DNA of 64,000 nt, from contig CAMWYJ010000002.1 in the NCBI GenBank assembly GCA_947178445.1, forward strand, positions 96,479-160,478, given 5' to 3'. The position numbers and the translations under genes were made by a program. Numbering within the stretch: position 1 is the first letter of the stretch; each line of letters opens with the position of its first letter. The stretch comes from an uncultured Clostridium sp. (lineage in GTDB: Bacteria; Bacillota; Clostridia; Lachnospirales; Lachnospiraceae). Of the stretch, positions 29,215 through 51,646 are shown piece by piece. The notes below the pieces were generated by a model. The model saw only the letters and a list, made by a program, of their open reading frames with translations, did not search any database and was not told the origin of the DNA.

Positions 29215-29967
29215 TTAATTCACCTGAATAATCTTTCTTTTCTGTTCCTCTTCTTGCATTCGTTTCTTCTGCATCTTAAGCTGTACCTGTTCTAAAATCT
29301 GATTCTTATACAAGTCGCTCATTTCTTTTGCCATATCGGTATCCCGAAGAGAACTAAATGTAGACTCCAGATTATATGACGTGTTCTGATTATTCATAAC
29401 CGTGTATGCCAGACGGTTCGACTGTGCCCCGATAGAAGACTGTGCCGATGTAACTTTCTTAAGTGCATTATCAATATCCCGAATATCAAACTTCTTTGTC
29501 ACATCAAAATCCGCAATTCCAAGCTCTTCTAAGGTTACATTCACAAGCTCCATCTCATGTCCCACTCCAGATGGGTTCGTTGCTAACTCCATCGTTGCCA
29601 TACTGCCATCTAAGAGCTTTAATCCATTAAACTGGGTATCCCTTGCAATACTTGTGATTCCCTTCTTGATCTGGTCAATCTCTGCCTGCATCATGGAAAG
29701 TTCGTCTTTGGAGTAGATTGCCGAATTAGATGCCTGCAATCCCAATTCCCGGATTCTGCTTAGGGAATCATACATAGAAGACAATGCACCATCTGCTACA
29801 TTTAAAACGCTATTGCCCTTCTCTGCATTCTCAGTTCCGATGTCATAACCGTTCTTCTGGCTCTTAATCTTCTCTGAAATAGATAATCCAGCCGCATCAT
29901 CCGCTGCACTGTTAATCTTATAACCACTGGATAAATTGTGGTAATTCTTATCAATACTAAGCGACAT
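29215..29967 (-). CDS. Flagellin-family protein, short and atypical (truncated N-terminal D0, divergent C-terminus)
   Basis: LSSGYKINSAADDAAGLSISEKIK and ..SIGAQSNRLAYT..LRDTDMAKEMSDLYKNQIL are flagellin N and C signatures. ATG at 29967 follows GAAGGAGG. In-frame stops prevent any N-terminal extension. Confidence 0.8.
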   Translation of the reverse strand: MSLSIDKNYHNLSSGYKINSAADDAAGLSISEKIKSQKNGYDIGTENAEKGNSVLNVADGALSSMYDSLSRIRELGLQASNSAIYSKDELSMMQAEIDQIKKGITSIARDTQFNGLKLLDGSMATMELATNPSGVGHEMELVNVTLEELGIADFDVTKKFDIRDIDNALKKVTSAQSSIGAQSNRLAYTVMNNQNTSYNLESTFSSLRDTDMAKEMSDLYKNQILEQVQLKMQKKRMQEEEQKRKIIQVN

Positions 29968-30152
29968 AGCTACACCTCCTTCTATGATTTGCCAAAACAT
30001 TTATTAAAGATATTTTAACATATCTTAAATCAATCATCAATCGAAAAATTCGGGAAAACAATTTATAATGCTTCTATTACAATCATATGCTGCAGCAGGT
30101 TGCTACTCTACCGCCAAAAAGAAAATCTTGAGGGAGTCGTCTGTTTTATACT

Positions 30153-33388: not shown

Positions 33389-33627
33389 TCTATTCCTCCT
33401 GTAATAATTTGCAAAAACCCTTCATTGCCTATCTTTAAAAGTCCATCCGTTATTCCTAATAAAACCAAATCCTCTTAAGAGATTGTTTTGACTGGTTGCC
33501 TGCGTCACCAGATTAACTGCATATCCATCATCTTTTTCCTCAACCATACACCCACATGATTTTTATAACCGCTAAATCAACTATAACTCTGCTAATTAGA
33601 AAATTCACACGATTCCTTCGACAAATA

Positions 33628-33657
33628 TTGACACTTTTTTACAAATTATGGTAGAAT
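33628..33657 (+). promoter_or_regulatory. Sigma-A-type promoter with an extended -10
   Basis: TTGACA (33628-33633), 18-nt spacer ending in TGg, then TAGAAT (33652-33657). It lies about 115 nt upstream of the 33772 start. Confidence 0.55.
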
Positions 33658-33771
33658 ATCCGCACAACAGGGAAATTTTTCTGTTGCAGGGCTAAACTTT
33701 CATTCAAGTCAGTCCGATACAAAATATAAGGCATGGTATGTCTGAGTAATGACGAGGAGGATGAGGAGTTC

Positions 33772-34323
33772 ATGTCAAACGAATCAAGTCAGGAACGAAT
33801 CTCTCAAAAATTGTCTCAAGGCACAGAGAATAAGCCAAAAAACAATGTTCTTGTCATTGTGGTATGTTTTATCGTTGCCGCCATCGTAGTTACTGCTCTT
33901 GTATTAATTTTAACGAGACAGTCTGCTGATGCCGAGAAGCGTAACGTAGTTGTAACCCCTGATAATGTGGAAGAGGTTCTTTCCGATATGCAGAATCAAC
34001 AGGTTCAAGCAGGTACATATGAGGTTACAATGAATACAACATGGAATTTCGACAAAGGGGATTCTGCTTCCAGTAATGCCTATGTTGAAAATTCTACCGC
34101 AAATGCTAACAATGTGTATTTTGACATTGTCCGCTCTGACACAGAAGAGACAATTTACAAATCGCCTATCATACCATTAGGCAGCCATTTGGAAAATATT
34201 ACTTTGGATACCCCGTTGGACAAGGGGACTTACGATTGTGTACTGACCTATCATCTATTAGATGATAACGAGGAACCGATTAGTATGCTGAATATTAATC
34301 TATCCATTGTAATAGAGAATTAG
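33772..34323 (+). CDS. Membrane-anchored extracytoplasmic protein, unknown function
   Basis: ATG at 33772 (MSNESSQ) follows GAGGAG. Single TM (VLVIVVCFIVAAIVVTALVLIL) followed by a beta-rich domain. Confidence 0.6.
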   Translation: MSNESSQERISQKLSQGTENKPKNNVLVIVVCFIVAAIVVTALVLILTRQSADAEKRNVVVTPDNVEEVLSDMQNQQVQAGTYEVTMNTTWNFDKGDSASSNAYVENSTANANNVYFDIVRSDTEETIYKSPIIPLGSHLENITLDTPLDKGTYDCVLTYHLLDDNEEPISMLNINLSIVIEN

Positions 34324-34403
34324 GTGGCAGTAGGTACATTGTACCTGCAATATAACCACAAACGAAGACGTTTGTAAATTTAATGTTCAAGGAGGAATGT
34401 TTT

Positions 34404-35726
34404 ATGAAGAAATTTGGAAAGAGACTCATGGCTTTGACCATGGTGGGTGTATTAATGTGTGCACCTTTAACTGCATTTGCTACCGAAGTAGATGAGGAAT
34501 CCTCAGCACAGGGTAACATTACTGGTTCTGGTGACGTAGAAGGCATTGTGAACAAAGATGTATTTAAAGTTGTACTCCCTACCGTTGCTGCAGGTGATAC
34601 TACTTTTAATTTCATCTTAGACCCACAGGGATTAATTAAGGACACTGACGGATCAAAATACACTAATGCTACCTTTGATGCTGCTGCAAAAGGACTCTAT
34701 TTTGCAAATCCACAGGATGGCGGAAGCACCAAGTATATGGCTTCTAGTCCTGCACTTACCGCTACTAACAAAGGTACGGTTGACGTTGATGTTACTTTAA
34801 CTGCAACTGCTGATGCTGATTCTTTGAAGGATGCTGATAAGGGATATACAATCGGACTTGCTGCAGATGATACCTTTGCCAACGATAAGACTACTAGTGT
34901 ATATCTTGCTTTAGTTAGCGGAGATCAGACAGCCGCTTTGACCGCTGATGGTGCAACCATTACCGACACTTTAGCTGCTGCACCAAGCGATGCTTATGAA
35001 GTAACATATAATTCTACTAGCAGTAAGTACGAGTATGGTTTAACCGCTGCTGCTCAGGCTGCTGATTATACTGGATTTAAATCTTTAGACTTTAACTTAA
35101 CCGGTGCATGTAATACTGATGCAGATTGGGCTGTTGCAGAGGATGCTGCACCAAGCGTAAATGTTGCTTGGACATTGGAGAAGCATATTGATGAATTAAC
35201 TTATGATAAAATGAAAGGTGATACTTCTGCAATCACTGTTACAACATATGATGCTGTAAAATCTGCTAAGTTAGTTAAGTTCAATGGTGCTGCTAACACA
35301 AATCCATTAACTATAGGTACAAATTGTTCTGTATCTGGCACCTCGTTTACTTTACTTGCTGCATGGACTACTAAAATTACGGCTGAAACTGTTATCACAT
35401 TAACATTTGAAAATGGTCGGACCCAGACTCTTACGATTAATGTTATTGACCCTACAGCCACCCCTCTGCCATTGACTTATAATAGAAAAAGCGGTGATAC
35501 TTCTGCAATTTCTGTTACAACTTTTGCCGAGGTAAAATCTGCTAAGTTAGTTAAGTACAATGGTGCCGCTAACGCAAATCCATTAACTATAGGTACAAAT
35601 TGTTCTGTATCTGGCAAGACCTTTACTTTACTTGCTTCATGGGCTTCTAAGATTACAGCTGAAACTGTTATCACATTAACATTCGAAGATGGTCGGACTC
35701 AGACTCTTACTGTTAATGTACAATAA
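34404..35726 (+). CDS. Secreted Thr/Ala-rich surface protein with two tandem about 90-aa C-terminal repeats
   Basis: ATG at 34404 follows AAGGAGGAA. Signal peptide MKKFGKRLMALTMVGVLMCAPLTAFA. A WxL-like NVAWTLE motif precedes the repeats. Confidence 0.7.
   Translation: MKKFGKRLMALTMVGVLMCAPLTAFATEVDEESSAQGNITGSGDVEGIVNKDVFKVVLPTVAAGDTTFNFILDPQGLIKDTDGSKYTNATFDAAAKGLYFANPQDGGSTKYMASSPALTATNKGTVDVDVTLTATADADSLKDADKGYTIGLAADDTFANDKTTSVYLALVSGDQTAALTADGATITDTLAAAPSDAYEVTYNSTSSKYEYGLTAAAQAADYTGFKSLDFNLTGACNTDADWAVAEDAAPSVNVAWTLEKHIDELTYDKMKGDTSAITVTTYDAVKSAKLVKFNGAANTNPLTIGTNCSVSGTSFTLLAAWTTKITAETVITLTFENGRTQTLTINVIDPTATPLPLTYNRKSGDTSAISVTTFAEVKSAKLVKYNGAANANPLTIGTNCSVSGKTFTLLASWASKITAETVITLTFEDGRTQTLTVNVQ
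35196..35723 (+). repeat. In-frame tandem duplication (276-nt period, two units, high nucleotide identity by eye)
   Basis: Unit 1 starts at 35196 (LTYDKMKGDTSAITV..) and unit 2 at 35472 (LTYNRKSGDTSAISV..). Long identical runs include AAATCTGCTAAGTTAGTTAAGT and ATAGGTACAAATTGTTCTGTATCTGGCA. Confidence 0.85.
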
Positions 35727-35778
35727 TTTTATAAAATAGAACAAGTAACGAAATATATTTAACTTGTTTTCTCATTCT

Positions 35779-35819
35779 AACCGTACATCAGCGTATTTAT
35801 AGCCTGATGTACGGTTTTT
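35779..35819 (+). terminator. Rho-independent terminator
   Basis: AACCGTACATCAG-12 nt-CTGATGTACGGTT followed by TTTTT. Confidence 0.8.
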
Positions 35820-35963: not shown

Positions 35964-36010
35964 CACAAAAATAAAGTGCATAAGTTGGTTACCAGTAACT
36001 TACACACTTT
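35964..36010 (-). terminator. Terminator at the distal end of the glycan island
   Basis: AAAGTG.ATAAGTT..AACTTA..CACTTT imperfect hairpin, followed on the minus strand by ATTTTTGTG. Confidence 0.5.
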
Positions 36011-36060
36011 ATATTAGACTCTTGTCAGTACAGACAGATCGTTTCGCCGCACCATAATAT

Positions 36061-37110
36061 TTATATTATCTTGTCCAAAAGATAATAATTATAATTCGCT
36101 TTTTTTAATATTTTTTCAGGAATCTCTATTTTATCAGAATAGAAACTGTTAATACTATTTTTCACCTTTTCATAAGATGCATTAAAAATATCCATACACC
36201 TTTCTGAATATCCAATTTGCTCATAATATAAACTTGTCTTTGCATATTGTACAGAAAAACTCATAACAGATTTTTTCAACGTACAACCAACAATCCCAAC
36301 ATGAAATTTTCCTGTTATTACGCAATCCACATTATCAATAATTGTTATCAACTGACTGACATCTCTATACTTAAAAGTCATACAACGGTTTTTAGGAAAA
36401 TGCCGAGCAAACTCTTTAATCTCAGCATAACCGGCATAACCACCTATACCATCTGCACCTATTACAAAAACAATATCATCCCGTGTAAAAAACAGTTCCC
36501 GTACAGCTTGATAAACCTTATCTAAGTATTCCTTAACATTTAAATAATGAATAAATATTACTTTTTTTCCAGAATAACTTTCTTTTATCTTTCGTGATTC
36601 AGCACATTCTTTAATAAAATTATGCGAAATGAGAGTTTGTGCTGTATCTGCCGTAACGTATATTTTCTTCTTACCAGCTCCAACTTTTTGTAATAATCTT
36701 TTACTTTTATAATCCCTTACAGAAATTAAAACAGCTCTTTTTGCAATCAGTCCTAACATCTTATCCAGTAGCGGATATTCATAAGGTCCTATTCCCTGTG
36801 CTAGTAATATAATTTTTTTCTTTAAAAAAACTGCCTTAATACCTGGATAATAATATCTGGTTACTCTCTGTATTGTTTTTTTCAGAGAACCTGAATACCA
36901 ATGTTCAATATAACCCAAGTACCCTCCTGGTATAAAAATAAAAAAATCACACTCATTAATCTCTTTTAAAGTTGTATCTTTGTTATAATCAACTATTTGT
37001 AAGTTATTATCATATTTCCGAAGATTATTTATCAATATCTGCCTTAATAAATCATCTCCAAAATTTCCCACTTCACATTGCAGCGCTCCACAAAGCATTA
37101 TCTTCCTCAT
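36061..37110 (-). CDS. Polysaccharide pyruvyl transferase family protein (CsaB/WcaK-like)
   Basis: 349 aa. N-terminal GALQCEVGNFGDDLL and the general layout are typical of PS_pyruv_trans proteins. Confidence 0.7.
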   Translation of the reverse strand: MRKIMLCGALQCEVGNFGDDLLRQILINNLRKYDNNLQIVDYNKDTTLKEINECDFFIFIPGGYLGYIEHWYSGSLKKTIQRVTRYYYPGIKAVFLKKKIILLAQGIGPYEYPLLDKMLGLIAKRAVLISVRDYKSKRLLQKVGAGKKKIYVTADTAQTLISHNFIKECAESRKIKESYSGKKVIFIHYLNVKEYLDKVYQAVRELFFTRDDIVFVIGADGIGGYAGYAEIKEFARHFPKNRCMTFKYRDVSQLITIIDNVDCVITGKFHVGIVGCTLKKSVMSFSVQYAKTSLYYEQIGYSERCMDIFNASYEKVKNSINSFYSDKIEIPEKILKKANYNYYLLDKII

Positions 37111-37135
37111 ATCGTATCCTTTCTATTTTCTAAAA

Positions 37136-37723
37136 TCATCTATTTGACCAATACTCTAAAATTTGTTGGACTTTCTCTTTTTGAAATTGCTCGGGTGTTA
37201 GAACATAATAATTAAATTCTGCATCACGTATTGTCACTGTTTTGATTTTTTCAAATCCAAGCTGCTTTGAAAACGAATTCATTACTCGATTATCCTTTTT
37301 ATTTTCATTGACCATTCGATTTAAATGCAAGATTTCAAATGCAAATTGTATCGTTAAATATTTTGCTTCAATTGCATATGGTGCTTCTTTGGCATAATTC
37401 TCATCAATAATACAACTACCTTCCTCACAGGAACCGTCACTGATATCATAAAGCCTTATCGTTCCAACCAAATTTCCCTTCTTATTATGTATTCCCCAAT
37501 AAATATCATCCTTCCGGATGCAGTATTTCTGATACCATATTCTTTGTTGTTCTAAAGTAATGTCTGACTCCTGATGTAAAAAATATTTATTTCTTTCCTG
37601 ATTTCTTAACATTACAATATCATTCAAATCTATTTCTCTAATTGGAATGAGATTACAAAAACTACCTTCTATAACATTTTGCTTATAACTAAATACTATT
37701 TCCTCAAGATTCATTTTCATCAC
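37136..37723 (-). CDS. GNAT-family N-acetyltransferase (RimJ/RimL-like)
   Basis: 195 aa with the Acetyltransf_3-type pattern (..NEN..NRVMNSFSKQLGFEKI..). Overlaps the upstream gene by 20 nt. Confidence 0.7.
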   Translation of the reverse strand: MMKMNLEEIVFSYKQNVIEGSFCNLIPIREIDLNDIVMLRNQERNKYFLHQESDITLEQQRIWYQKYCIRKDDIYWGIHNKKGNLVGTIRLYDISDGSCEEGSCIIDENYAKEAPYAIEAKYLTIQFAFEILHLNRMVNENKKDNRVMNSFSKQLGFEKIKTVTIRDAEFNYYVLTPEQFQKEKVQQILEYWSNR

Positions 37724-38099
37724 CTGATTCTAATAATTCAACCAAACCAATCTGTGACATTAAGAATACTACTTTTCTGTTATTGAATAAAATTGCACTC
37801 TTTTCATCAGATACTAAAACTGCACCACTCGCAATCCATTTCTCTTTTTCCTGTTCTATATTTGCCACTTCATAGCATGTATGATATAAATTAATATGTT
37901 TTTTGACAAATCTGCTAACAGCATTTCCTTCTATTAACTCCACTCTTCCAGAACCTTCTAATTCTAACATGCACAACCATGCATCCTGTAAAGGATCATA
38001 TATTTTTTCAGTTCTACTCACAATTACTGTAACCGTTTCTAAAAACTCTATTGTCTTATCTATATTATCCGTTGCAATTCCAACATGGTGTAATTTCAT
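37704..38099 (-). CDS. VOC-family protein (glyoxalase/methylmalonyl-CoA epimerase-like)
   Basis: MKLHHVGIATDNIDKTIEF start and about 130-aa size are typical of the VOC fold. Confidence 0.7.
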   Translation of the reverse strand: MKLHHVGIATDNIDKTIEFLETVTVIVSRTEKIYDPLQDAWLCMLELEGSGRVELIEGNAVSRFVKKHINLYHTCYEVANIEQEKEKWIASGAVLVSDEKSAILFNNRKVVFLMSQIGLVELLESGDENES

Positions 38100-38102
38100 T
38101 TT

Positions 38103-38339
38103 CTATCTTCCTTTACTTTCAATCAAACTAAGTAATTCTCCAACTGTAGCTAAACTTGCAATTTCCTCTGTTGTAAATTTTATGCCAAACTCCATTTCCA
38201 CTTCCATAATCATTTGAAAATGTGTTAATGAATCCCATCCTTCTATATCATCAGCTGTAATTCCCGGTGCAATTACCAACTCTTCGTCTTCAAATACTTC
38301 TCTAAATATTTCTTGTATTTTTTCTTCTATCTCGTTCAT
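38103..38339 (-). CDS. Acyl carrier protein
   Basis: 78 aa and acidic, with the phosphopantetheine attachment motif GWDSLTHFQ. Confidence 0.8.
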   Translation of the reverse strand: MNEIEEKIQEIFREVFEDEELVIAPGITADDIEGWDSLTHFQMIMEVEMEFGIKFTTEEIASLATVGELLSLIESKGR

Positions 38340-38342
38340 TTT

Positions 38343-40148
38343 CTAATCCTCCATAATATAAATTTGAAATACTGGTCTACTTTCTATATCATATTGGTAG
38401 ATCCTACTGTTTTTCTCTGTTTTTCCATCTTCAACATCTATTTCGCTAAAGCCCAATTGCGGATACAATTCTTTAACCAACACATTTTTTTCTGTAGGAA
38501 TGTATTCACCTATGACCTTATCACAATTGTGCTCATCTGCCCAATCATAAATATGTTGAAACACCAGATATTCTAATCCACGTTTTAATATTCGGCAACT
38601 CATAACCCATGTATCAATAAAACAGACGTTATCCTGCTTTTGCAAGATAACACAAGCAATACATCCATAATCACTAAATTTATCTTTTAATGAGACTGCT
38701 ATTAAACCATAATCCTCCCTGCCTAATAAACTTTCTATATAGGTATCCAAATACCTTCTTGTACGGACATTAAATTGGTTTGATTTATTTATTAACTGAA
38801 CAAACCTCTTTAACATTTTAGAAGTCACTTCTAAGATGTTTGCTTTCATTTCTAAAGCTTTCAAATATTCATCATAATTCAATGATATCTCCTGCAATTC
38901 TATCCTGGCACGATTCTTCTCATAAGTCTCTGCCCTGGCATAATCCTCTGGCGTTATTTGAAGCCACTCGAAAGCCCAAACTGCATCTAATGCGTTCACA
39001 TAATTTGCAGGATCCTCAGGTACATCAACCACTGTCACTTCAGGAAGATTCATTCGCACGATTTCCCTCTCCGCAGGATTATCATCAAAAAAAACCATAC
39101 TATCCAATCCTATATTTATTTCTTCAGCAATTTTTTTAATATTAGATGCCTTGTCCTGCCAGTTTGCCTGAAACGAAGCAAAATCATTTAAGGATAACGG
39201 CATTTTTTTATTATATTTAAAGGGCTGTTCTGCTATTTCCCTGTCATTTTTACTACATACAGCCAATAAAATTCCTCTGTTATTCAACTCTTTCAAATAT
39301 TTTTGAAATGTAAGATAAGACTCCCCTACAGCATCATTAACATCAATCCTTATCCCATCCCATCCTTCTTCTGCTACAATTCCACCCCATAATGTATTAT
39401 CCAAATCAAGTACTATACATTTTTTTATTTTTCCTCTCCACGCAACAATCAGCTTCACAAACATCTCCACAACATCTCCAATATACTGCAAAGAAAAAGA
39501 AACTTTACTTAATGCATACAGAGAACTATCAAACCAATTCTTTTTACCATAAAGCGAAGCTAAATACTCCAAATCAACTATTACAACATTATCAGAATGC
39601 TGTTGTGTTAATTCGATGTTCAACCGTTTTATAAAGTTATGTTGTGAAAATATATAATTTGCTTCAAGGTTGCCAAGTACTCTTTCGATCGGAATAACAA
39701 AATTTCCCTGTAATATCTTTGTCTGTGGTAAATATTTTTTAATGATGCCCCATATATTTTTATAATCGTCTATATAATATTTTATTAGTTTATTAATCCC
39801 ATCAATATCTTCATTATATTGTGGCAACTGGTTAATATCACGATAATCTGGCAATATAATTAGTATATCTGGCTGAAATTGAAAAAGAGCGGACTCTCCA
39901 TTCAAAACATCCATTTTAATCCCATTATATTCACCCTCATATATATCTGCACTTACCCCTTCTTTATAGAGTAAAAGTCTTAAAACTTGTACAAAATATT
40001 GAATGCTACATGATCCAAGAACCGCAACCTTTATATCAGAAGGCGTTGTATTCACAATATTTTTCACTTTTTTTGCAAGACGTAAAATACTACGATAGTC
40101 ACTCAAATGCAAGTTTTTTATTTCTTCCTGTACTTCTCTTATCTGCAT
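38343..40148 (-). CDS. FkbH-like HAD-IIIC phosphatase/acyl-loading protein
   Basis: HAD motif I VLDLDNTLWGG, CSKNDRE, FFDDNPAERE, and a C-terminal GNAT-like region; this is the FkbH-like domain layout. ATG at 40148 follows AGAGGTG. Confidence 0.75.
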   Translation of the reverse strand: MQIREVQEEIKNLHLSDYRSILRLAKKVKNIVNTTPSDIKVAVLGSCSIQYFVQVLRLLLYKEGVSADIYEGEYNGIKMDVLNGESALFQFQPDILIILPDYRDINQLPQYNEDIDGINKLIKYYIDDYKNIWGIIKKYLPQTKILQGNFVIPIERVLGNLEANYIFSQHNFIKRLNIELTQQHSDNVVIVDLEYLASLYGKKNWFDSSLYALSKVSFSLQYIGDVVEMFVKLIVAWRGKIKKCIVLDLDNTLWGGIVAEEGWDGIRIDVNDAVGESYLTFQKYLKELNNRGILLAVCSKNDREIAEQPFKYNKKMPLSLNDFASFQANWQDKASNIKKIAEEINIGLDSMVFFDDNPAEREIVRMNLPEVTVVDVPEDPANYVNALDAVWAFEWLQITPEDYARAETYEKNRARIELQEISLNYDEYLKALEMKANILEVTSKMLKRFVQLINKSNQFNVRTRRYLDTYIESLLGREDYGLIAVSLKDKFSDYGCIACVILQKQDNVCFIDTWVMSCRILKRGLEYLVFQHIYDWADEHNCDKVIGEYIPTEKNVLVKELYPQLGFSEIDVEDGKTEKNSRIYQYDIESRPVFQIYIMED

Positions 40149-40279
40149 TAGCACTGCACCTCTTCAAAATACATCTCTACTAAGTGTTTATCCAATTGAC
40201 CCCTTCATATATTACTGGAATATCTAGTCCCTCTCTTGTATCATATATATCATTCATATACATTACTTACAATAATATT

Positions 40280-40308
40280 ATTATATCCATTTAAACACTA
40301 TTTTTCAA
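40280..40308 (-). promoter_or_regulatory. Internal sigma-A promoter for the FkbH sub-operon
   Basis: Minus strand TTGAAA-17 nt-TATAAT (-35 at 40303-40308, -10 at 40280-40285) in the 212-bp gap. Confidence 0.6.
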
Positions 40309-40366
40309 GCATAAGTAAAACCAGAGCCGACCGTTGTTCTAGCGATTTATTACAATTTATCCTCAC

Positions 40367-41425
40367 CTATTGAATATCATCCTGCAAGCCTTCATTTACA
40401 ACATATGCCGCAATACGCCTGGCTCCATTTCCGTCAACTAATGACTGCATGCGTATAGATTTACTTTTCCGTTCCTCATAATGATTCTTGTAAAATAAAA
40501 GTGATTTCACACATTGCTCTATACATTTTTGATGATTCTGATAAGCATTACCGGCATACAGCATACAGCCAGCTTTTTCCCATACTACTGCTCCTTCCTG
40601 ATTCTCTGCCACTTCCAAACAGATAGAAGGAATTCCGCAGGCGCATAGCTCATAGGTAGTTGTTCCCGCTGCGGATACAGCAACATCACATTCACGCATC
40701 CAGCCAGCCATATTATCCACATTCTCATGCAGGCAGATATTGGAATGTAAACCTGCCAAGAGATGCAGCATCTCTTTATTCTGATTAAAACATCCAACAA
40801 TTACATGATACTCCAATTCCATCAATTCAGAATTCCTAAGCACAGCATCTAACAAATCACCCGCCACATTTAACTGATCTGTTCCTCCTGTTGTAATAAG
40901 TACTTTCCTGACCTGCGCATGCACCTCATAGGATTTCAAGGCAAATTCTTCTCTCAATGGAATATAACGACTTCCTATCAAAAAACGGGGATTTATACCC
41001 GTTAACTGATACACACTTTCATATAAATTTTCATCTGCAAAAGCACTATAATTAATCACAGTATCTACAGGATATGCAAACCGGCGCAAATCATCAATAT
41101 AAATTATTCTTGTATATTGTGATACCTTCTGTAAATATTCCTCTGTCACAAAATAGCTGTCCATAAGAAGAACCTCTACATGATGCTCTTTCACATAATC
41201 ACATAGCTTCTCTGTCTCCTGATCAAGCTCATTCCAAATAGTTTCTAATACATCCACGAAAAAGCCTTTTTGTTTGATTAACTTGCAGGGTCTGTCATCC
41301 GCCACCACAAAGGTAACCTCTGCTCCCATTTTCCGTATCTGCTCTGCAACAGACAAGCACCTCATAACATGTCCCGTTGCTATTATCTCATTACCATCGA
41401 CACGTATATATACATGATTTATCAT
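40367..41425 (-). CDS. pseG: UDP-2,4-diacetamido-2,4,6-trideoxy-beta-L-altropyranose hydrolase
   Basis: IRVDGNEIIATGHVMRCLSVAEQ N-terminus and a GT28-like C-half typical of PseG. Adjacent to pseC. Confidence 0.78.
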   Translation of the reverse strand: MINHVYIRVDGNEIIATGHVMRCLSVAEQIRKMGAEVTFVVADDRPCKLIKQKGFFVDVLETIWNELDQETEKLCDYVKEHHVEVLLMDSYFVTEEYLQKVSQYTRIIYIDDLRRFAYPVDTVINYSAFADENLYESVYQLTGINPRFLIGSRYIPLREEFALKSYEVHAQVRKVLITTGGTDQLNVAGDLLDAVLRNSELMELEYHVIVGCFNQNKEMLHLLAGLHSNICLHENVDNMAGWMRECDVAVSAAGTTTYELCACGIPSICLEVAENQEGAVVWEKAGCMLYAGNAYQNHQKCIEQCVKSLLFYKNHYEERKSKSIRMQSLVDGNGARRIAAYVVNEGLQDDIQ

Positions 41426-41444
41426 ATTACTATCTTTCCTACTA

Positions 41445-42584
41445 TTACATTTTCAATTGTTTTTCAACAATTTCGATTGTTTGCTCTACCACATAATCTA
41501 CCTGTTCCTCTGTCATACCTGCAAATAACGGAAGCGTAATCGCTCTGTCATAGAACTCCTCTGCATTCGGACAACAGACATCCTGATAACCATGTGTTTG
41601 ATAATATGGATGTTTATATACTGGAATATAATGTACATTTACTCCAATCCCAATTCTTCGCAGTTCCTCAAATACATTCTTCCTGATTGCTGCTGGAACC
41701 TGAACCATATATAGATGGTAGCTGCTTAAACAGTCCGGATGCTGGTAGGGTGTAACAATATTGGAATTACCTGCAAATCCTCTGTCATACCTGTCCGCTA
41801 ACTCTCTTCTATGTTTCGCAAAAGCGTCCAGCTTCTTCATCTGGGAAATCCCCAACGCACATTGGATATCGGTGATGCGGTAATTATATCCTAGTGCTAA
41901 CTGTTCATAATACCACGGACCATCATGGTTTTCTAAAAATTTCTCTTCTCTTGTAATTCCATGTGTATGATATAGTTTTAACTTCTCATACAAATCCTTA
42001 TCATTCGTTGTTACCATTCCGCCTTCTCCAGTTGTTACCGGCTTCACTGGATGAAAACTAAAGGTTGTCATATCGGATATGGTGCCAATTTTTCTTCCTT
42101 TATACTCACCACTAATAACCTGGGCACCATCCTCAATTACAATTAAATGATGCTTTTTTGCTATTTCAGTAATGGCATCCATTTCACAAGGCTGACCTGT
42201 GTAGTGAACAGGAATAATTGCTTTCGTCTTTGAAGTAATTTTACGTTCTATATCCTCTGGGTCAATATTATAAGTATCCTTCTTAATATCCGCAAATACT
42301 GGAGTTCCCCCACAATAAAGGACACAATTTGCTGACGCCGCAAAAGTAATTGGAGATGTAATCACTTCGTCACCCTGTCCGATTCCCGCTGCCAGACAGG
42401 CAATATGGAGTGCTGCTGTTCCATTTGATACGGCTACCGCATATTTAGCCCCTACATAATCTGCCACTATCTGCTCAAATTCAGCCACCTTTGGCCCCGT
42501 TGTAAGATAGTCGGAACGCAGTACATCCACAACCGCTTGTATATCTTCTTCATCTACTAATTGTCTTCCATATGGTATGAACAT
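41445..42584 (-). CDS. pseC: UDP-4-amino-4,6-dideoxy-N-acetyl-beta-L-altrosamine transaminase
   Basis: IPYGRQLVDEEDIQAVVDVLRSDYLTTGPKV start and a DegT-type PLP block (SFHPVKPVTTGEGG) are characteristic of PseC. Confidence 0.85.
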   Translation of the reverse strand: MFIPYGRQLVDEEDIQAVVDVLRSDYLTTGPKVAEFEQIVADYVGAKYAVAVSNGTAALHIACLAAGIGQGDEVITSPITFAASANCVLYCGGTPVFADIKKDTYNIDPEDIERKITSKTKAIIPVHYTGQPCEMDAITEIAKKHHLIVIEDGAQVISGEYKGRKIGTISDMTTFSFHPVKPVTTGEGGMVTTNDKDLYEKLKLYHTHGITREEKFLENHDGPWYYEQLALGYNYRITDIQCALGISQMKKLDAFAKHRRELADRYDRGFAGNSNIVTPYQHPDCLSSYHLYMVQVPAAIRKNVFEELRRIGIGVNVHYIPVYKHPYYQTHGYQDVCCPNAEEFYDRAITLPLFAGMTEEQVDYVVEQTIEIVEKQLKM

Positions 42585-42611
42585 ATATGCTTTCCTCCAT
42601 CTATATATAAC

Positions 42612-43940
42612 CTATCTCTTCTTCTTAAATCTGTCACCATAAAATGTCTCTGTTGTCAATCTGTATGAAACCGGTCTTTTATATGATTCCAAATTTTCTT
42701 TACAATATTTTCTTAATTGTTTGATATAATCCCTGTTATTATTTTTATCTTCTACACAAATATTGGCAATAACACTTTGTCCTGTAATTGGATTTGCCTC
42801 ACCATAAACATATACATCTTTCACTCCATCAAAAGATAATAAAACACTTTCTATCTCATTTGGATATACTTTTTCTCCGCCTACATTTATTAAATCTGTA
42901 GTTCGACCCAATATTTTAAGATAATCCCCTTTTACCTCAACCTTGTCCTTTGTATTAAACCAGCCCTCTTCATCAAATGGAGATGGGGCATTCAGGTAAC
43001 CTATCATTGCGGATCTGGCTTTTATATATAAAATATCATCTTCTATTTTTGTTTCGTATCCCATGCCGCCTATTTTCATCCAAAGAGAATCTGAACTTTC
43101 CGACTTCGTAGACATAATGCCAATTTCTGATAAGCCATAAGTTTGTTTTAATCTCACATCTGGCAGAATTTTATGCAATTGCTTTAACGTCGACTCCGGC
43201 ATTGGTTCTGTACCATATGATATCATCTTAAGGCTGGATAAATCATATTTCTCATAAACTCTGCTCAAAAGAATCATATTGATAAATGTCGGTGATGTCG
43301 GTAAAAGCTCTATATCATACTTCTCAATAATTCCACACACTTCTTCGGGACTTCTGGTTTTCAAGGTAGCAATCATACACCCGCTTGACAATGAATGCAT
43401 GATTGTATTAAATCCACCTATATGATCAAACAGCAAAAATGTAACTGTACGTAAACATTTTCCCGGCTGATTAAATTTTTCTATTAAATAAGTTAAATCA
43501 TGCAACGCTGCTTTTGGCTCTCCAGTTGTTCCAGATGAAAATAGTATTAACCCCGGAGCTTTTTTTTCAATCAAGCCACGCAGCATTTCATGTTTCACTT
43601 CATAGTCAGTTTTCCTAATCTCTATATCCTCTTGCAAATTGATGACATATTGACTTTCAGAAATTCTAATATAATTCTCTTTTCCTTTAATCGTTTTCGA
43701 TATAGGAACGATGATAACATCACGCTCTATTAAAGCAACCAAAAACGCAATTGACACAGGTGTAAACTCTGCTATAATAGAAACAACATTTCCTGAAGAA
43801 ATATTGTTCTCCTCCAATAACTTTGTAACCTTTTGATATTCCTCATAAATATCTCCAAAAGTATATTCTTTATTATCTGAAACTACAGCCAGTTTGTCCT
43901 TGTTCTCTCTTAATCGATCTAATATATAATCTATCTTCAT
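42612..43940 (-). CDS. AMP-dependent adenylating enzyme (acyl/aminoacyl-carrier-protein ligase-like)
   Basis: AMP-binding signature LFSSGTTGEPKA, YGLSE and GEKVYPNEIE. 442 aa (short C-domain). ATGA overlap with the upstream SDR. Confidence 0.82.
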   Translation of the reverse strand: MKIDYILDRLRENKDKLAVVSDNKEYTFGDIYEEYQKVTKLLEENNISSGNVVSIIAEFTPVSIAFLVALIERDVIIVPISKTIKGKENYIRISESQYVINLQEDIEIRKTDYEVKHEMLRGLIEKKAPGLILFSSGTTGEPKAALHDLTYLIEKFNQPGKCLRTVTFLLFDHIGGFNTIMHSLSSGCMIATLKTRSPEEVCGIIEKYDIELLPTSPTFINMILLSRVYEKYDLSSLKMISYGTEPMPESTLKQLHKILPDVRLKQTYGLSEIGIMSTKSESSDSLWMKIGGMGYETKIEDDILYIKARSAMIGYLNAPSPFDEEGWFNTKDKVEVKGDYLKILGRTTDLINVGGEKVYPNEIESVLLSFDGVKDVYVYGEANPITGQSVIANICVEDKNNNRDYIKQLRKYCKENLESYKRPVSYRLTTETFYGDRFKKKR

Positions 43941-44632
43941 CGATTCACCCCTCCTAAATATATAATCTGCCCTGTTATAAAGTCACTGCTAGGATTTAGG
44001 TAAAAGTCAATTACATTGATTATATCCTTAAACTCACCAAAACGATGAATTGCCTGGTTATCTAACAACTTATTCAATTTCTCTTCTGGTACTTTTGCAA
44101 TCAAATCTGTTTTTATTGGAGTTGGTCCTACAGCATTAACTGTAATACGAAACATTGCCAATTCTTTAGCCAATATTTTGGTCATGCTTTCAACTGCCGC
44201 TTTAGAAGAAGAATAGGCCATTTCTCCCTCTAAATTAAATGGTACTGCTACTGTTGAAAAATTAACAACTCTTGGATGCTCAGATTTCTTAAGCAAAGAG
44301 GCAAATGCTCGGATGCAAATCAGTCCTCCAAGATAATTGACCTCCATCAAATGCTTTGCAGTCTCGATAGGGGTCATCATAAAATGATTCATTGCTGCTA
44401 TTCCCGCATTGTTAATCAAAACGTCAACAAATTTGTAGTCTCTACGTACCTGCTTTGCAAAATCATTCACTTGCTTTTCATCACATACATCTACAACAAA
44501 ATGCCTGTACTGATCATGCACAATTTGACTTTCATGACGACTACACCCTATAACGGTATGCCCTTTCTCAAGATAATACTGAGCAATATTATATCCAATT
44601 CCTTTATGTGTACCTGTAATCACAATATTCAT
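43937..44632 (-). CDS. SDR-family oxidoreductase
   Basis: VITGTHKGIG cofactor motif, NNAG, YSSSKAA catalytic motif. Confidence 0.85.
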   Translation of the reverse strand: MNIVITGTHKGIGYNIAQYYLEKGHTVIGCSRHESQIVHDQYRHFVVDVCDEKQVNDFAKQVRRDYKFVDVLINNAGIAAMNHFMMTPIETAKHLMEVNYLGGLICIRAFASLLKKSEHPRVVNFSTVAVPFNLEGEMAYSSSKAAVESMTKILAKELAMFRITVNAVGPTPIKTDLIAKVPEEKLNKLLDNQAIHRFGEFKDIINVIDFYLNPSSDFITGQIIYLGGVNR

Positions 44633-44634
44633 TA

Positions 44635-44925
44635 TTATTCTACTTCCTTTATAAGTTCAGCAATAAATTCCTCTAATGTCTCAAATGAATAGAACGGACT
44701 TCTTTCTCTTGAAAAAGCCTTATCTGACACAATCCTTATATCCTTATCCAATTCATCTGAAATCCGTTCTTCAATAATCGTAATAAACGTAACAAACTCC
44801 ATAGAATCAATAGCGGCCTTTTTTCCTATCAACCTGACATCTTCGGAATATACCAGCTGTCTATCGTCATCCAATTGCTCATTTAATTCCTCAATAGAAT
44901 CCATTATAATCTCTTTAACCGTCAT
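44635..44925 (-). CDS. Carrier protein (ACP/PCP-like)
   Basis: 96 aa and acidic, with an IDSMEFVTFI Ser motif. Abuts the SDR and adenylase genes. Confidence 0.6.
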   Translation of the reverse strand: MTVKEIIMDSIEELNEQLDDDRQLVYSEDVRLIGKKAAIDSMEFVTFITIIEERISDELDKDIRIVSDKAFSRERSPFYSFETLEEFIAELIKEVE

Positions 44926-44964
44926 ACTCTTAACTCCTTACATACATATAATCACTTCACTCAC

Positions 44965-45366
44965 TTATGACTCTTTAATAAACTTTAGAAATTCATCGTA
45001 ATCTCTTATATAATCTTCTTCCTTATATACTTCGGAAGCCAAACACATTAGTACCGCATCTGCAGAAAAATCATACATTTCTCTCCACATATTATTAGGT
45101 ACATATAAGCCTTCATATGGCTTTTCCAGAAAAACTTTTTTCTTTTCTCTTCCGTTGTCCAATAATATCTTGCATGAACCATGAATACATATTAATATCT
45201 GCTCTAAAGTTTTATGTGCATGATATCCCCGAACTACACCTTCACCCGTATCATACATATAATAAACTCGTTTAATTTCAAAAGGAATATCATTAAATTC
45301 CTCTAAAGCAACAAGCTGTCCTCTCTCATCACCATGCTGCTGAAATTGATATTTTATAATCTGCAT
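44965..45366 (-). CDS. FdtA/WxcM-like cupin (sugar 3,4-ketoisomerase family)
   Basis: HGDERGQLVALE..PFEIKRVYYMYD..RGYHAHK..Q is the WxcM/FdtA signature. Confidence 0.78.
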   Translation of the reverse strand: MQIIKYQFQQHGDERGQLVALEEFNDIPFEIKRVYYMYDTGEGVVRGYHAHKTLEQILICIHGSCKILLDNGREKKKVFLEKPYEGLYVPNNMWREMYDFSADAVLMCLASEVYKEEDYIRDYDEFLKFIKES

Positions 45367-45434: not shown

Positions 45435-46523
45435 CTAAAAATTGTTAATTACTCTAATAACTTGTTTTATTTCATCTTCTGACATTCCTACCCATAATGG
45501 TAGAGACAATTCAGATTCTGCTATATACTCAGAAACAGGAAAGTCGCCCCTTTTATAATTCAAATCTTTATATGCCTCCTGCAAATGAACAGGTATCGGA
45601 TAATGAATCTGTGTCATAATGCCATTCTTCTGCAAATATTCCTGTAATTGTTGGCGTTCATCACAAAAAACTGTAAAAACATGCCACACATTATCCTTTT
45701 CTGAATACTGAGGTAACTTCAGCTTTGGATTATGAATATGCTCTATATACATCTGCGCAATTCTGCATCTCTCCAAATTCCAAGCCTCCAAACAAGCAAG
45801 CTTAACTCTCAAAACTGCTGCCTGTATCTCGTCCATACGGGAATTAAATCCTGCATAAATATGATGATACTTTTTCATGGAACCATAATTGCGTAATGCT
45901 TTCGCTTTATTATATAGATTCTCATCATTGGTTGTAATGGCTCCTGCATCTCCCAATGCGCCAAGATTCTTACCTGGGTAAAAACTAAATCCCGCAGCAT
46001 CTCCAACTGATCCTGCCATTTGGTTGTCCCTCACTGCACCATGTGCCTGCGCAGCATCTTCTATTACAATTAAATTGTATCTTCTTGACACCTCATTAAT
46101 TGCATCCATATCTGCCATTCTTCCATACAGATGCACTGCAATAACTGCCTTTGTACGCTCTGTTATTTTTTCTTCAATTAACCCGGGATCCATATTACAG
46201 GTATCTTCACATACATCTACCAACACAGGGGTCGCCCCTGCATAAGACACCGCTAATGCAGTTGCAATAAAAGTATTGGCCGGAACAAGTACTTCATCAC
46301 CCTTTCCTATCCCATATGCCTCTAAAATAATATGTAATGCATCTAACCCATTACCAACACCTAAACAATACCTGACTCCTATATAATCAGCATACTCCTT
46401 TTCAAATCTTTCCAGCTCTTCACCGAGAATATACCAGCTATTATCCAAAACAGAATTAATTGCCTGATTCATTTTCTGTCGAATGGGTGCATTGAGTTTT
46501 TCTAAGTTCAAATACGGTATCAT
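45435..46523 (-). CDS. DegT/DnrJ/EryC1-family sugar aminotransferase (FdtB-like)
   Basis: [13 protein letters not shown] start (ATG at 46523) and the PLP-lysine block [15 protein letters not shown]. Confidence 0.85.
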
Positions 46524-46527
46524 AAAA

Positions 46528-47340
46528 TCACTCTCCCATCCACATCGGCAAAAAATGTATAATACCATCTATGGCATCTTTATACTTCTTACATTTTAAT
46601 AATTCCTTTAATTGTGCATAAAAGAAAAACTTCCCTCTACTCTTTAAAAAAGATGAGTTATTTGATGTCCATAAGGATGTGCTGGAAATTCTATACCGTA
46701 CCAGCGTTTCATCTAACAGCACCACCTCATTTCCACTTACAATATAATTAAATAAAAACGGATAATCATCCAACATTGGATATCGAATATCGAATCCGCC
46801 AATCCCTTTAATATATTCTGTCAAATAAAAGTTACTTGCCGGTCCTGCTATAATATTCTCTATAATAATATTGTCATACTGCTCCTGCCATCCCATTTTA
46901 ATAATCTTATAACCTTTTTCAAAATACCGTTTCATTTCATTCACACGGGCGATATTGGAACCAAATGGCTCTACCTTGCAAAATACAGCATTTAGTGACT
47001 TCTCTTTTGCAAAATAATATTTTTTTTCAATTGCCTGCTCCAATAAAATATCATCTCCCGCTATTATCTGGATATATTTCCCCTGTGCCTGCCATATACC
47101 AATATTGCAATTCTTTGTCACTCCATGATTCTGTTTTGCTGAAAGTAATCTTGACTTCTCAAATCTTTTAGAGTTTGTCCGTAACCATTCTTTTACGATT
47201 TCAACCGTATTATCTGTTGAATGATCATCTGATACAATCAATTCCAAATTTTCATATGTTTGATTTTTGATACTTTCCAATGTTTCAATAATGGTTTTAC
47301 ATGAATTATATGTAACAACCACTACGCTAATAAGCTCCAC
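46528..47340 (-). CDS. Family 2 glycosyltransferase
   Basis: [28 protein letters not shown] motifs. Confidence 0.85.
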
Positions 47341-47370: not shown

Positions 47371-47874
47371 CTATATTTCAAATACAACCTCTTCCAAAGA
47401 AATTACTGTAGTTTTTGTTTTCTTAGATAACAGCTCTTTTATCTCATCATATGCGAAAGTTGCTGTTACAACAATCACATCGACTGTTTCTATTTCATCA
47501 TCTATTGTAATCATTTTAAGTTCCGGATCAGTACAAACCGCATTTTGATCAATTGCATATCTTACCTCAATATTAGTCTGTTTTAAATCCTCATATAACC
47601 GGCTGCCCATTCCGCCCATTCCATATATGGCAATCGTTTTATATCCATTTCGTATAAAATATTCTTCCAATGACCGACCTTCCTGCTTTATTGCCATCCA
47701 TTGATTCAGCATATTATAATAACCCCTAAATTTATCAACATCCTTATTGGCAGTCTCTGCCAATTTTTTCACTGCTATTCCCATTATTGCTACACCACCA
47801 ATGAAACCTGCTGCTAATGATACTCCAAATCCCTTTTTCACTATTGATTTCCTCCTCTTTATCTTCTTTTCCAA
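47371..47874 (-). CDS. Membrane-anchored protein with a Rossmann-like domain, unknown function
   Basis: N-terminal TM, then TIAIYGMGGMGSRLYEDL. Similar in style to the N-terminus of the 630-aa protein at 58184-60076. Confidence 0.5.
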   Translation of the reverse strand: MEKKIKRRKSIVKKGFGVSLAAGFIGGVAIMGIAVKKLAETANKDVDKFRGYYNMLNQWMAIKQEGRSLEEYFIRNGYKTIAIYGMGGMGSRLYEDLKQTNIEVRYAIDQNAVCTDPELKMITIDDEIETVDVIVVTATFAYDEIKELLSKKTKTTVISLEEVVFEI

Positions 47875-48831: not shown

Positions 48832-48875
48832 ATTTCACTCTCCGATTTTTCTTCCTATCCATCTACATTTCCTAT

Positions 48876-49622
48876 TTAGTATTCTATACCACCACTGACT
48901 ACAACTAATTCACCAGTCATAAATTTTGCATTATCTGATAATAAAAACTCTGCCAGATATGCTATTTGTTCTGCTTCTATAATTCCCAAAGGCTGCCATG
49001 TCTGTGCTGATTCCAGATAATTCTCAATCTCCTGAACTCCAACCATCAACATTGTCGTTTTTACACAGGCGGGAAGAATTGCATTCACTCGAATCTTTCT
49101 CCTCATAAATTCCTTTGACATCGTTTTGACTACAGAATTTACCGCTGCTTTTGAGGCCGAATACTGTGACTGACCTTTGCTATTAAGCACGGATGCAATA
49201 GAAGAAATTGCAACCAGGGAACTTCCGTCATTAGAATATTTTTTCATGGAAAAATACTTACCTAATTCAAACAATGCAAAACAATTTATTCTCATTGCCT
49301 GTTCCATTTCTTCAATATTATTTGTTTTTATCACACTAGTAAATGTAACACCGGCACAATGCACTAATCCATCTAACTTTAAGCTGTTTTCTTTACAATA
49401 GCGGAATATATCTTCCATATTTTCCAAATCCATTAAATCATATGAAAACGGAAAAATATGGTCAGGATTTTCCTGATGCAGCTTTTCCAGCCGCTCCTTA
49501 TTCCTTGCAACTGCTACAATCTTTGCCCCTGCCATGACCAACTGTTTCGTTATCGCCTCTCCAATGCCTGAAGTTGCTCCAGTCACTAATATTATTTTGC
49601 TGTCCATATTTGTATCTAACAT
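48876..49622 (-). CDS. SDR-family ketoreductase (FabG-like)
   Basis: VTGATSGIGEA and YSASKAA motifs. Confidence 0.85.
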   Translation of the reverse strand: MLDTNMDSKIILVTGATSGIGEAITKQLVMAGAKIVAVARNKERLEKLHQENPDHIFPFSYDLMDLENMEDIFRYCKENSLKLDGLVHCAGVTFTSVIKTNNIEEMEQAMRINCFALFELGKYFSMKKYSNDGSSLVAISSIASVLNSKGQSQYSASKAAVNSVVKTMSKEFMRRKIRVNAILPACVKTTMLMVGVQEIENYLESAQTWQPLGIIEAEQIAYLAEFLLSDNAKFMTGELVVVSGGIEY

Positions 49623-49692
49623 ATCACATTCCCCATTCTATCATCCACATATAACGCAGTCCTCATTGGCATTGACAAATGCCTATACTTCT

Positions 49693-50709: not shown

Positions 50710-50724
50710 GAAAACTATCCACCT

Positions 50725-51632: not shown

Positions 51633-51646
51633 AGCTCCCCCCACTC

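Follow-up and report, generated by a model that had tools for sequence, protein, structure and literature searches.

An FkbH–acyl carrier protein cassette in a Lachnospiraceae flagellin glycosylation island and its predicted role in N-acylation of an aminodideoxyhexose

The five-gene cassette and its predicted enzymes

The DNA analysed here is a stretch of 64,000 nucleotides (nt), referred to as the window, from an uncultured Clostridium sp. of the Lachnospiraceae, and the subject of this report is a cassette of five minus-strand genes encoding, in this order, an FkbH-type enzyme, an acyl carrier protein (ACP), a VOC-fold protein, a GNAT and a pyruvyltransferase. Coordinates are positions in the window, and L-numbers (e.g. 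L002) denote comparator loci from other genomes. Because genes for flagellin (29215-30000) and for a Maf-type transferase (23110-24837) are both found in the window, the genes surrounding the cassette are regarded as a flagellin glycosylation island. In our view, it is reasonably probable that the role of the cassette is to provide and modify the acyl donor within a conserved module for an N-acylated 3-amino-3,6-dideoxyhexose of the flagellin glycan. The cassette and its flanking signals are composed as follows.

40280..40308, minus strand: promoter-like site, TTGAAA-17-TATAAT, within the 212-nt gap between PseG and FkbH
38343..40154, minus strand: FkbH-type HAD-IIIC enzyme with FkbH_N, HAD and C-terminal domains
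38103..38339, minus strand: ACP (PP-binding, 30 bits) with a DSL phosphopantetheine site
37704..38099, minus strand: VOC-fold metalloenzyme (Glyoxalase_4), predicted C2 epimerase of glyceryl-ACP
37136..37723, minus strand: FdhC-like GNAT (Acetyltransf_3), predicted acyl-ACP:dTDP-3-amino-3,6-dideoxyhexose N-acyltransferase
36061..37110, minus strand: PS_pyruv_trans-family pyruvyltransferase (101.5 bits)
35966..36012, minus strand: terminator-like hairpin (35971-36012) followed by UUUUU, closing the operon

Open reading frames (ORFs) and domain matches agreed with the five packed genes of the first-pass annotation, in position as well as in order, the successive spacings being 3 nt, 3 nt, an overlap and 25 nt. 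The GC content of the cassette (0.31) was the lowest of any segment. The near-consensus promoter that had been proposed upstream of FkbH was recovered as an 11/12 match, the best of the region. Promoter-like sites were not enriched in the region (36 found versus 33.7 expected), and 7 matches of at least 11/12 occurred in the window versus approximately 3.2 expected by chance; the site is credible by its position only, lying on the correct strand in the sole sizeable gap. The DNA around it occurs in the window but not in L002, L083 and L084. The proposed terminator was likewise found, as a hairpin with a folding energy of −18.2 kcal/mol (z = −2.6) and a U-run, at a position that a consensus terminator scan did not pick up. 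The placement of the cassette at the island end was evident from the identity to L002, which is 88.5% from position 35736 downward versus 79% inside the cassette.

For FkbH, the ATG at 40148, located 10 nt past GAAGAGG, is the likelier start and gives a protein of 601 amino acids (aa). The protein scored 293.1 bits on TIGR01686 (cut-off 146.65; model positions 2-320 of 323) and 70.6 bits on the HAD-IIIC model TIGR01681 (cut-off 35.75), and it also matched FkbH_N, with PF21211 being present. The DxDxT-type motif VLDLDNTLWGG, on which its earlier assignment had been based, was confirmed, with DLDNT (residues 248-252) invariant across 17 homologues. Residue C518 lies within an M-S-C-R motif that is invariant in the same set, which includes no characterised FkbH sequence. 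In work on OzmB, a catalytic cysteine reportedly carries the glyceryl-S-enzyme intermediate, and C518 may be its equivalent. The sole solved FkbH relative is the uncharacterised Bacteroides protein BF1531 (PDB 3SLR; E = 4e-67), and the named close homologues are annotated as Lachnospiraceae metagenome-assembled genomes (MAGs).

The ACP gene begins 3 nt downstream of FkbH, of which only one was found in the window. In an FkbH-anchored sample of 80 genome loci from many phyla (L003-L082), extended to 82 by the window and L002, an ACP gene adjoins FkbH in 73 loci. Membership in the FkbH subfamily together with an ACP partner had been set beforehand as a test of the assignment; the score above the TIGR01686 cut-off and this adjacency both place the protein there. 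Family models and gene order identify the pair as a true FkbH-type enzyme and its dedicated ACP; from family membership and linkage, FkbH would transfer a glyceryl unit derived from 1,3-bisphosphoglycerate to this ACP.

The VOC protein matched Glyoxalase_4 with 48.6 bits, and its metal ligands H5, E54, H73 and E121 were invariant in 12 orthologues. Its best characterised PDB relatives were methylmalonyl-CoA epimerases (3RMU, 62.7 bits by profile), and true glyoxalase I structures were not matched in the profile search of the PDB. With 35.4 bits on the methylmalonyl-CoA epimerase equivalog TIGR03081 (cut-off 114.95), it is by sequence a relative of this epimerase and not that enzyme itself. In L089 (9020-9973), a single 317-aa protein, which was the top match (P0169) of an exhaustive profile search, fuses the VOC and GNAT domains. 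This implies that both serve the same substrate stream, and we infer that the VOC protein is a C2 epimerase acting on a 2-hydroxyacyl thioester.

FdhC is a GNAT that places 3-hydroxybutanoyl on dTDP-Fuc3N (PMC4869667). The cassette GNAT matched FdhC (5KTA) at E = 3.6e-8 in a single-sequence search and at E = 4.6e-16 with a 16-sequence profile against the PDB, the next match having 33 bits, and no structure of the pseudaminic acid (Pse) enzyme PseH was matched by this profile at E <= 1. On the PseH model TIGR03585 the protein scored 24.9 bits versus a cut-off of 93.1, and BLASTP against the PseH of the same island gave E = 0.52. The top Foldseek match of its AlphaFold2 model (pLDDT 93.7) was 5KTC, which is also FdhC. 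By these comparisons, FdhC is the only clear characterised relative of the GNAT. With 46 representatives at E <= 1e-30, the exhaustive profile search, which covered sequences rather than genomic contexts, showed the clade of this GNAT to be small. Among the island ORFs that were scanned, there was no other FdtC- or FdhC-type enzyme and no FdtC-type LbH acetyltransferase.

The pyruvyltransferase had been called CsaB-like. Its family stood, with 101.5 bits on PF04230 (gathering cut-off 25.3; profile positions 1-278 of 280); the likeness to CsaB did not, as the CsaB equivalog TIGR03609 gave 58.6 bits versus a cut-off of 213.1. No solved structure was matched in a PDB sequence search, and Foldseek on the model (pLDDT 91.3) returned generic GT-B-like UDP-GlcNAc 2-epimerases only (TM 0.5-0.64) and no pyruvyltransferase. 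As the structure searches were uninformative, family membership is taken from Pfam alone.

Linkage to 3-amino-3,6-dideoxyhexose genes

Upstream of the cassette, on the same strand, the island contains three genes that bear on the acceptor sugar, the first two of them at a distance of 5 kb.

44965..45366, minus strand: FdtA-type dTDP-6-deoxy-3,4-ketohexulose isomerase (Pfam FdtA, 180.9 bits)
45435..46568, minus strand: QdtB/FdtB-like C3 aminotransferase of the DegT family (PDB 3FRK, QdtB, E = 7e-137)
46528..47340, minus strand: GT2 glycosyltransferase (Glycos_transf_2), candidate for transfer of the acylated sugar

The isomerase matched PDB 2PA7 (FdtA) at E = 1.7e-42, somewhat better than QdtA, and is 90-91% identical to the FdtA of L002, L083 and L084. 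On strong homology, the island would encode the first two dedicated steps of the dTDP-3-amino-3,6-dideoxyhexose pathway. The GT2 gene adjoins FdtA or the aminotransferase in L002, L083, L084 and L089-L092, and a gene for a C2185-like_N protein of approximately 160 aa was observed adjoining this block at 47371-47874 of the window, in L002 (6060-6560), in L084 (3835-4344) and in L089 (3562-4089 and 6462-6935).

The FkbH-anchored loci contained MaoC in 34 of 82 cases, VOC in 9, this GNAT in 4 and pse genes in 5. A word-indexed homologue search yielded only 14 GNAT relatives and a metagenome scan only two loci, giving a co-occurrence sample that is small and partly made up of close relatives. Fifteen loci have this GNAT or this clade of pyruvyltransferase; in 14 of them a QdtB-like aminotransferase is located within 10 kb of FkbH-ACP, and in 12 of these an FdtA ketoisomerase is also a neighbour of FkbH-ACP. 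Of the loci that encode this GNAT or the VOC-GNAT fusion, which number 13 with the window, 12 have the aminotransferase and 10 have FdtA. None of the comparator loci with this GNAT or pyruvyltransferase clade has a pse gene set; the window alone does. Gene orders in the comparators were as follows.

L002, L083, L084 (FkbH 75-82% identical): GT2, aminotransferase, FdtA, FkbH, ACP, VOC, GNAT and pyruvyltransferase, contiguous
L089: GT2, FdtA, aminotransferase, an unassigned gene, FkbH, ACP, VOC-GNAT fusion, pyruvyltransferase
L085, L087: FdtA and aminotransferase with methyltransferase, FkbH, ACP, VOC and GNAT; pyruvyltransferase absent
L092: GT2, FdtA, Wzx, pyruvyltransferase, ACP, FkbH, VOC, GNAT, aminotransferase
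L093: FdtA, GNAT, ACP, FkbH, VOC, an unassigned gene, aminotransferase and, further on, pyruvyltransferase
L090, L091: FdtA, aminotransferase, pyruvyltransferase, FkbH, ACP, VOC; an LbH acyltransferase replaces the GNAT
L011, L095, L096: aminotransferase (with FdtA in L011), FkbH, ACP, MaoC, SDR, GNAT

The pyruvyltransferase clade is likewise small, comprising 34 proteins. In all nine other loci that hold a clade member at 41-77% identity and have a known context, FkbH, ACP, FdtA and the aminotransferase are all present, and these contexts span flagellin islands as well as Wzx-type polysaccharide loci. A homologue at 32% identity (L094) resides in an ordinary exopolysaccharide (EPS) locus without FkbH. 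Directly upstream of FkbH, three loci without the pyruvyltransferase contain an S-adenosylmethionine-dependent methyltransferase gene (L085, 6850-7605; L087, 6858-7586; L040, 9000-9944). The methyltransferase in place of the pyruvyltransferase recalls the di-O-methylglyceroyl group of Campylobacter jejuni.

DNA alignment revealed the gap between FdtA and FkbH in L002, L083 and L084 to be gene-free and approximately 20-60 nt long, with an extra 4.8 kb in the window (40168-44970). By this alignment, the segment is a window-specific insertion that splits the module and holds the promoter-bearing gap, and it is not part of the module. It contains the following genes.

40367-41425, minus strand: PseG
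41445-42584, minus strand: PseC
42612-43940, minus strand: acyl-AMP ligase
43937-44632, minus strand: SDR
44635-44925, minus strand: ACP-like ORF of 96 aa with a DSM motif

The presence of a promoter in front of FkbH would be explained by the insertion of this PseC-PseG/ACP/SDR/ligase block in this lineage. The description of the cassette as a separately promoted sub-operon therefore stands as to the promoter site, whereas the cassette forms the distal half of the conserved module rather than a unit of its own.

Both island flanks (33619-35736 and 61682-61840 in the window) are common to the window and L002 at 89-90% identity. The island between them measures 25.6 kb in the window versus 13.9 kb in L002, and the L002 island is devoid of pse genes; it is a hypervariable cassette between conserved flanks. 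The presence of the five-gene cassette without pse genes in L002 implies that it works without Pse in the sister lineage and that the PseG adjacency in the window is secondary. As PseC and PseG are located within the window-specific insertion, the adjacency that had prompted the idea of a Pse acceptor is lineage-specific. Mapping of FkbH co-occurrence with pse genes, as suggested in the first-pass annotation, spoke against that idea: pse genes were found in 5 of 82 FkbH loci, and no locus with a GNAT orthologue besides the window has the pse set.

Proposed pathway and competing explanations

From these data we propose a variant of the Fdt/Fdh-type N-acyl aminodideoxyhexose pathway that is new in having an FkbH/ACP-derived donor, with enzymology predicted throughout. 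FkbH would move the C3 unit of 1,3-bisphosphoglycerate to its own ACP as (2R)-glyceryl, as family membership and linkage suggest, and the VOC protein would invert C2 of the glyceryl thioester. FdtA and the QdtB-like aminotransferase would convert dTDP-4-keto-6-deoxyglucose to dTDP-Fuc3N or dTDP-Qui3N, to the N3 of which the FdhC-like GNAT, judged by homology and gene linkage, would pass the glyceroyl group from the ACP. The pyruvyltransferase would cap the product with phosphoenolpyruvate (PEP), probably by forming a pyruvate ketal across the 2',3'-diol of the glyceroyl chain, a step that is less secure than all the others and is put forward with modest confidence. The side-chain ketal is favoured because the N3-acylated ring is free only at O2 and O4, so that the module's only vicinal diol is in the glyceroyl chain. 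The adjoining GT2 probably installs the finished sugar.

Several points weigh against this proposal. The chemistry of every step is predicted. FdhC uses acyl-CoA, and an ACP thioester as GNAT donor is assumed from context. The identity between the GNAT and FdhC is only 23-25%, and dozens of GNATs score about equal to FdhC in Foldseek, so that the fold alone does not discriminate between them. Many comparator loci are close relatives and hence do not amount to 15 independent events, and the Oribacterium locus L008, the sole exception among them, has a GNAT orthologue with neither FdtA nor the aminotransferase within 10 kb. RmlA and RmlB, which provide the dTDP precursor, were unmatched among the scanned ORFs, and no unscanned ORF in 1-14217 is of typical length; their genes may be located elsewhere in the genome. 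We know of no precedent for ketal formation between pyruvate and a glyceroyl side chain, and a neighbouring sugar could be the target. Finally, the window cassette does adjoin PseG and PseC, and FkbH-ACP is linked to pse genes in other phyla (L017, L029, L033 and L040).

The last point bears on the acceptor named in the first-pass annotation, according to which the GNAT would pass glyceryl from the ACP to an amino sugar, giving an N-glyceroyl nonulosonate or hexosamine with pyruvylation as a further decoration. That a GNAT should serve as the outlet to an amino sugar is plausible. If the nonulosonate were meant, the GNAT would acylate Pse or its precursor UDP-4-amino-4,6-dideoxy-beta-L-AltNAc, and the N-glyceroyl Pse would then be pyruvylated. 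The position of the cassette directly downstream of PseG and PseC in a complete pse island would fit, as would the weak match of the GNAT to the PseH model, the adjacency of FkbH-ACP to pse genes in 4 of 80 genome loci, the N-glyceroyl Pse of Tannerella forsythia and the di-O-methylglyceroyl Pse of C. jejuni, in which the FkbH gene cj1302 is located within the flagellar glycosylation island. The PseH score, however, is far below its cut-off, a proper PseH exists at 51051-51665 to which the GNAT is hardly similar by BLASTP, and the GNAT profile finds FdhC and no PseH structure. The orthologues travel with FdtA and the aminotransferase instead of pse genes, L002 is pse-free within the same borders, the PseC-PseG adjacency belongs to the insertion, and the four pse-linked FkbH loci are without this GNAT. 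We regard a Pse acceptor as highly improbable; the donor logic of the first-pass annotation is supported and its Pse acceptor probably wrong.

Two further explanations would leave much of the proposal intact. The donor could be shared, in that MaoC (56274-56687), a reductase and an AAC(3)-like/DUF4910 protein (54171-56255) turn glyceryl-ACP into lactyl-ACP or a related C3 acyl group for the Pse amine, which would be compatible with the proposed aminodideoxyhexose pathway. MaoC follows FkbH-ACP in 34 of 82 loci, mostly directly downstream and usually together with an SDR, in phyla including Bacillota, Bacteroidota, Nitrospirota, Planctomycetota and Ignavibacteria, and it may make lactyl-ACP there by analogy with polyketide synthase (PKS) loading modules, in which FkbH-like domains are taken to give D-lactyl-ACP (PMC7901079). 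Similar sets occur with pse genes in L017 (2947-5771), which has PseI, DUF4910, MaoC, an AAC(3)-like gene, FkbH and ACP, and in L040 (7401-8991), which has pse genes, ACP, an AAC(3)-like gene, MaoC, a methyltransferase and FkbH. In the window, which has a single FkbH, MaoC and one fused AAC(3)-like/DUF4910/wHTH ORF are located between PseB and PseF (54171-56687). This MaoC/AAC(3)-like trio is, however, 14 kb from FkbH, the window MaoC reaches only 25-65 bits against FkbH-linked MaoCs, and it could serve either of two other carrier modules, namely the ACP at 50725-50943 with two FabH-like proteins and an SDR, or the ACP-like ORF at 44635-44925 with an SDR and a ligase. Moreover, MaoC and the AAC(3)-like gene are both missing from L002, where FkbH-ACP is retained, and we consider a shared donor unlikely. 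The pse clusters of L017 and L040 belong to a deltaproteobacterial MAG and an Anaerohalosphaeraceae MAG, respectively.

Alternatively, donor and acceptor could be as proposed while the pyruvyltransferase makes a sugar ketal on another glycan residue, leaving the glyceroyl group free, with the VOC protein perhaps being no epimerase. Every characterised PS_pyruv_trans enzyme known to us pyruvylates sugar rings, the Pfam and Foldseek matches of the present protein are generic, and the GT2 is co-conserved with the module, so that a conserved neighbouring sugar would be a possible target. On the other hand, the clade occurs with FkbH-ACP in all contexts seen at 41-100% identity and loses this link at 32%, the gene directly adjoins FkbH or ACP in L090-L092, and a methyltransferase next to FkbH takes its place in L085 and L087; by chemical reasoning, an N3-acylated 3,6-dideoxyhexose lacks a ring diol for ketal formation. 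We consider a ketal on another residue possible but doubtful, and retain the side-chain ketal in the proposed pathway.

Related systems and the remainder of the island

The closest known counterpart is the Fdt/Fdh pathway (FdtA/FdtB/FdhC and QdtA/QdtB/QdhC) of E. coli O103, Acinetobacter and Hafnia, which makes dTDP-Fuc3N or dTDP-Qui3N with N-(R)-3-hydroxybutanoyl and shares with the module a 3,4-ketoisomerase, a C3 aminotransferase and a GNAT adding a short hydroxyacyl group at N3 (PMC4869667). Unlike in that pathway, the predicted donor is an FkbH-made ACP thioester from a glycolytic intermediate rather than an acyl-CoA, and the module additionally has a pyruvyltransferase and an epimerase-like VOC protein. 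The type B flagellin glycan of Clostridioides difficile is similar in being from a Firmicute, in having a terminal Fuc3N acylated at N3 and in the FdtB homologue of its locus, but its acyl group is a taurine-containing peptide and its locus is without FdtA (PMC5207245).

With the FkbH/ACP polyketide systems, such as those for FK520 methoxymalonyl-ACP and for tetronates (e.g. tetromadurin Mad7/Mad8), the cassette shares an FkbH-type HAD enzyme and a stand-alone ACP; these systems draw their C3 unit from 1,3-bisphosphoglycerate (PMC7489565). In contrast to them, the cassette lacks FkbK-/FkbI-type dehydrogenases, a PKS and a cassette-tied tetronate-forming FabH, and its outlet is an N-acyltransferase within a glycan locus. 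Tetronate-type use of glyceryl-ACP by the two FabH-like proteins of the island was set aside, those genes not being conserved with the cassette. CsaB and the other PS_pyruv_trans pyruvyltransferases resemble the present protein in the PF04230 match over the whole domain; the latter differs from them in scoring far below the CsaB cut-off and in belonging to a clade tied to FkbH-ACP rather than to secondary cell wall polymer (SCWP) or EPS loci.

That glyceroyl-type acyl groups on Pse are known chemically, as stated in the first-pass annotation, is correct for Pse5Am7Gra of T. forsythia (PMC5378307) and for di-O-methylglyceroyl-Pse of C. jejuni (PMC3068675), and in agreement with it, no defined genetic route to N-glyceroyl Pse was found in the searchable literature. 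The genetic basis in T. forsythia was stated to be unknown in 2017 (PMC5378307); its glyceroyl group, too, is amide-linked to an amino sugar of a surface glycan, but this sugar is a nonulosonic acid. D-glyceroyl on QuiNAc4N of Pragia fontium is cited in PMC10609480. In C. jejuni NCTC 11168, the flagellin glycosylation island holds the FkbH-domain gene cj1302 and the 'epimerase' gene cj1301 (PMC7099621), and the glycan carries an O-capped glyceroyl group, 2,3-di-O-methylglyceroyl-Pse (PMC3068675; SugarBase preprint), while Cj1298 is LegH (PMC3438082). The likeness, which is drawn from papers alone and not from sequences, ends at the acceptor, which is Pse or legionaminic acid (Leg), and at the methyl caps. 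The searchable literature contained no functional characterisation of cj1302 or cj1301, and no functional study was found that links FkbH with pseudaminic acid or a polysaccharide.

Tentatively, FkbH-ACP could be viewed as a general source from which bacterial surface glycans obtain C3 acyl groups of glycolytic origin, with swappable tailoring enzymes (VOC, MaoC-SDR, methyltransferase, pyruvyltransferase) and outlets (GNAT, LbH, AAC(3)-like), the Lachnospiraceae product being Fuc3N or Qui3N with an N-glyceroyl group bearing a 2',3'-diol pyruvate ketal, an undescribed sugar. If this were true, the pyruvyltransferase would have an acyl side chain, and not a sugar ring, as its substrate, and the N-glyceroyl and di-O-methylglyceroyl groups of T. 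forsythia and C. jejuni would be accounted for in the same way. N-Acyl decorations largely set the appearance of surface glycans to antibodies, phages and innate receptors, and for most unusual acyl groups the responsible genes have yet to be found. For C3 hydroxyacyl groups in amide linkage, the locus offers a defined set of genes that can be tested, and it ties the polyketide-type FkbH to glycan biosynthesis, with predicted flagellin residue masses of 233.09 Da for the N-glyceroyl-aminodideoxyhexose and 303.10 Da for its pyruvylated form in a gut or rumen Lachnospiraceae lineage. As FkbH-ACP cassettes with varied tailoring partners occur in glycan-type loci of many phyla, one reconstitution would annotate many genes now listed as 'HAD family hydrolase' and could guide work on the glyceroyl groups of Campylobacter and Tannerella.

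Proceeding upstream from FkbH on the same strand, the island contains PseG, PseC, the acyl-AMP ligase, the SDR, the ACP-like ORF, FdtA, the aminotransferase, GT2 and the small C2185-like protein, followed by two FabH-like genes with an SDR and an ACP, PseH, PseI, an MBL-fold protein, PseF, the AAC(3)-like/DUF4910 fusion, MaoC and PseB, and at the far end by a large putative transferase and TagF-like genes. PseH (51051-51665) scored exactly at the 93.1-bit cut-off; by homology, the Pse pathway of the island is complete and includes a PseH of its own. At 47875-51665, PseH is directly followed by a second carrier module with a 72-aa ACP (50725-50943), two FabH-like proteins and one SDR; the module hints at a 3-hydroxyacyl donor for Pse in place of simple acetylation. 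The ACP-like ORF, SDR and acyl-AMP ligase (42612-44925) form a third such module alongside PseC and PseG. Within the ligase gene, a perfect 12/12 sigma-70 consensus (TTGACA-16-TATAAT; 43751-43778, plus strand) was observed in antisense orientation, which is probably due to chance in AT-rich DNA.

Convergent to the cassette, a plus-strand gene (34383-35726) encodes a secreted protein with two CBM_X2-like repeats of approximately 80 aa, which are also seen as a DNA self-repeat (35195-35437 and 35472-35719). The gene is closed by a strong terminator (35779-35816; z = −6.3) and is kept beside the island in L002 and L084. An ORF of 795 aa between Maf and an ABC transporter (24816-27203) gave no Pfam match. 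At the other island end (60098-63387), two TagF-like CDP-glycerol glycerophosphotransferases and two small cytidylyltransferases are encoded, which suggests a glycerol-phosphate component in the glycan.

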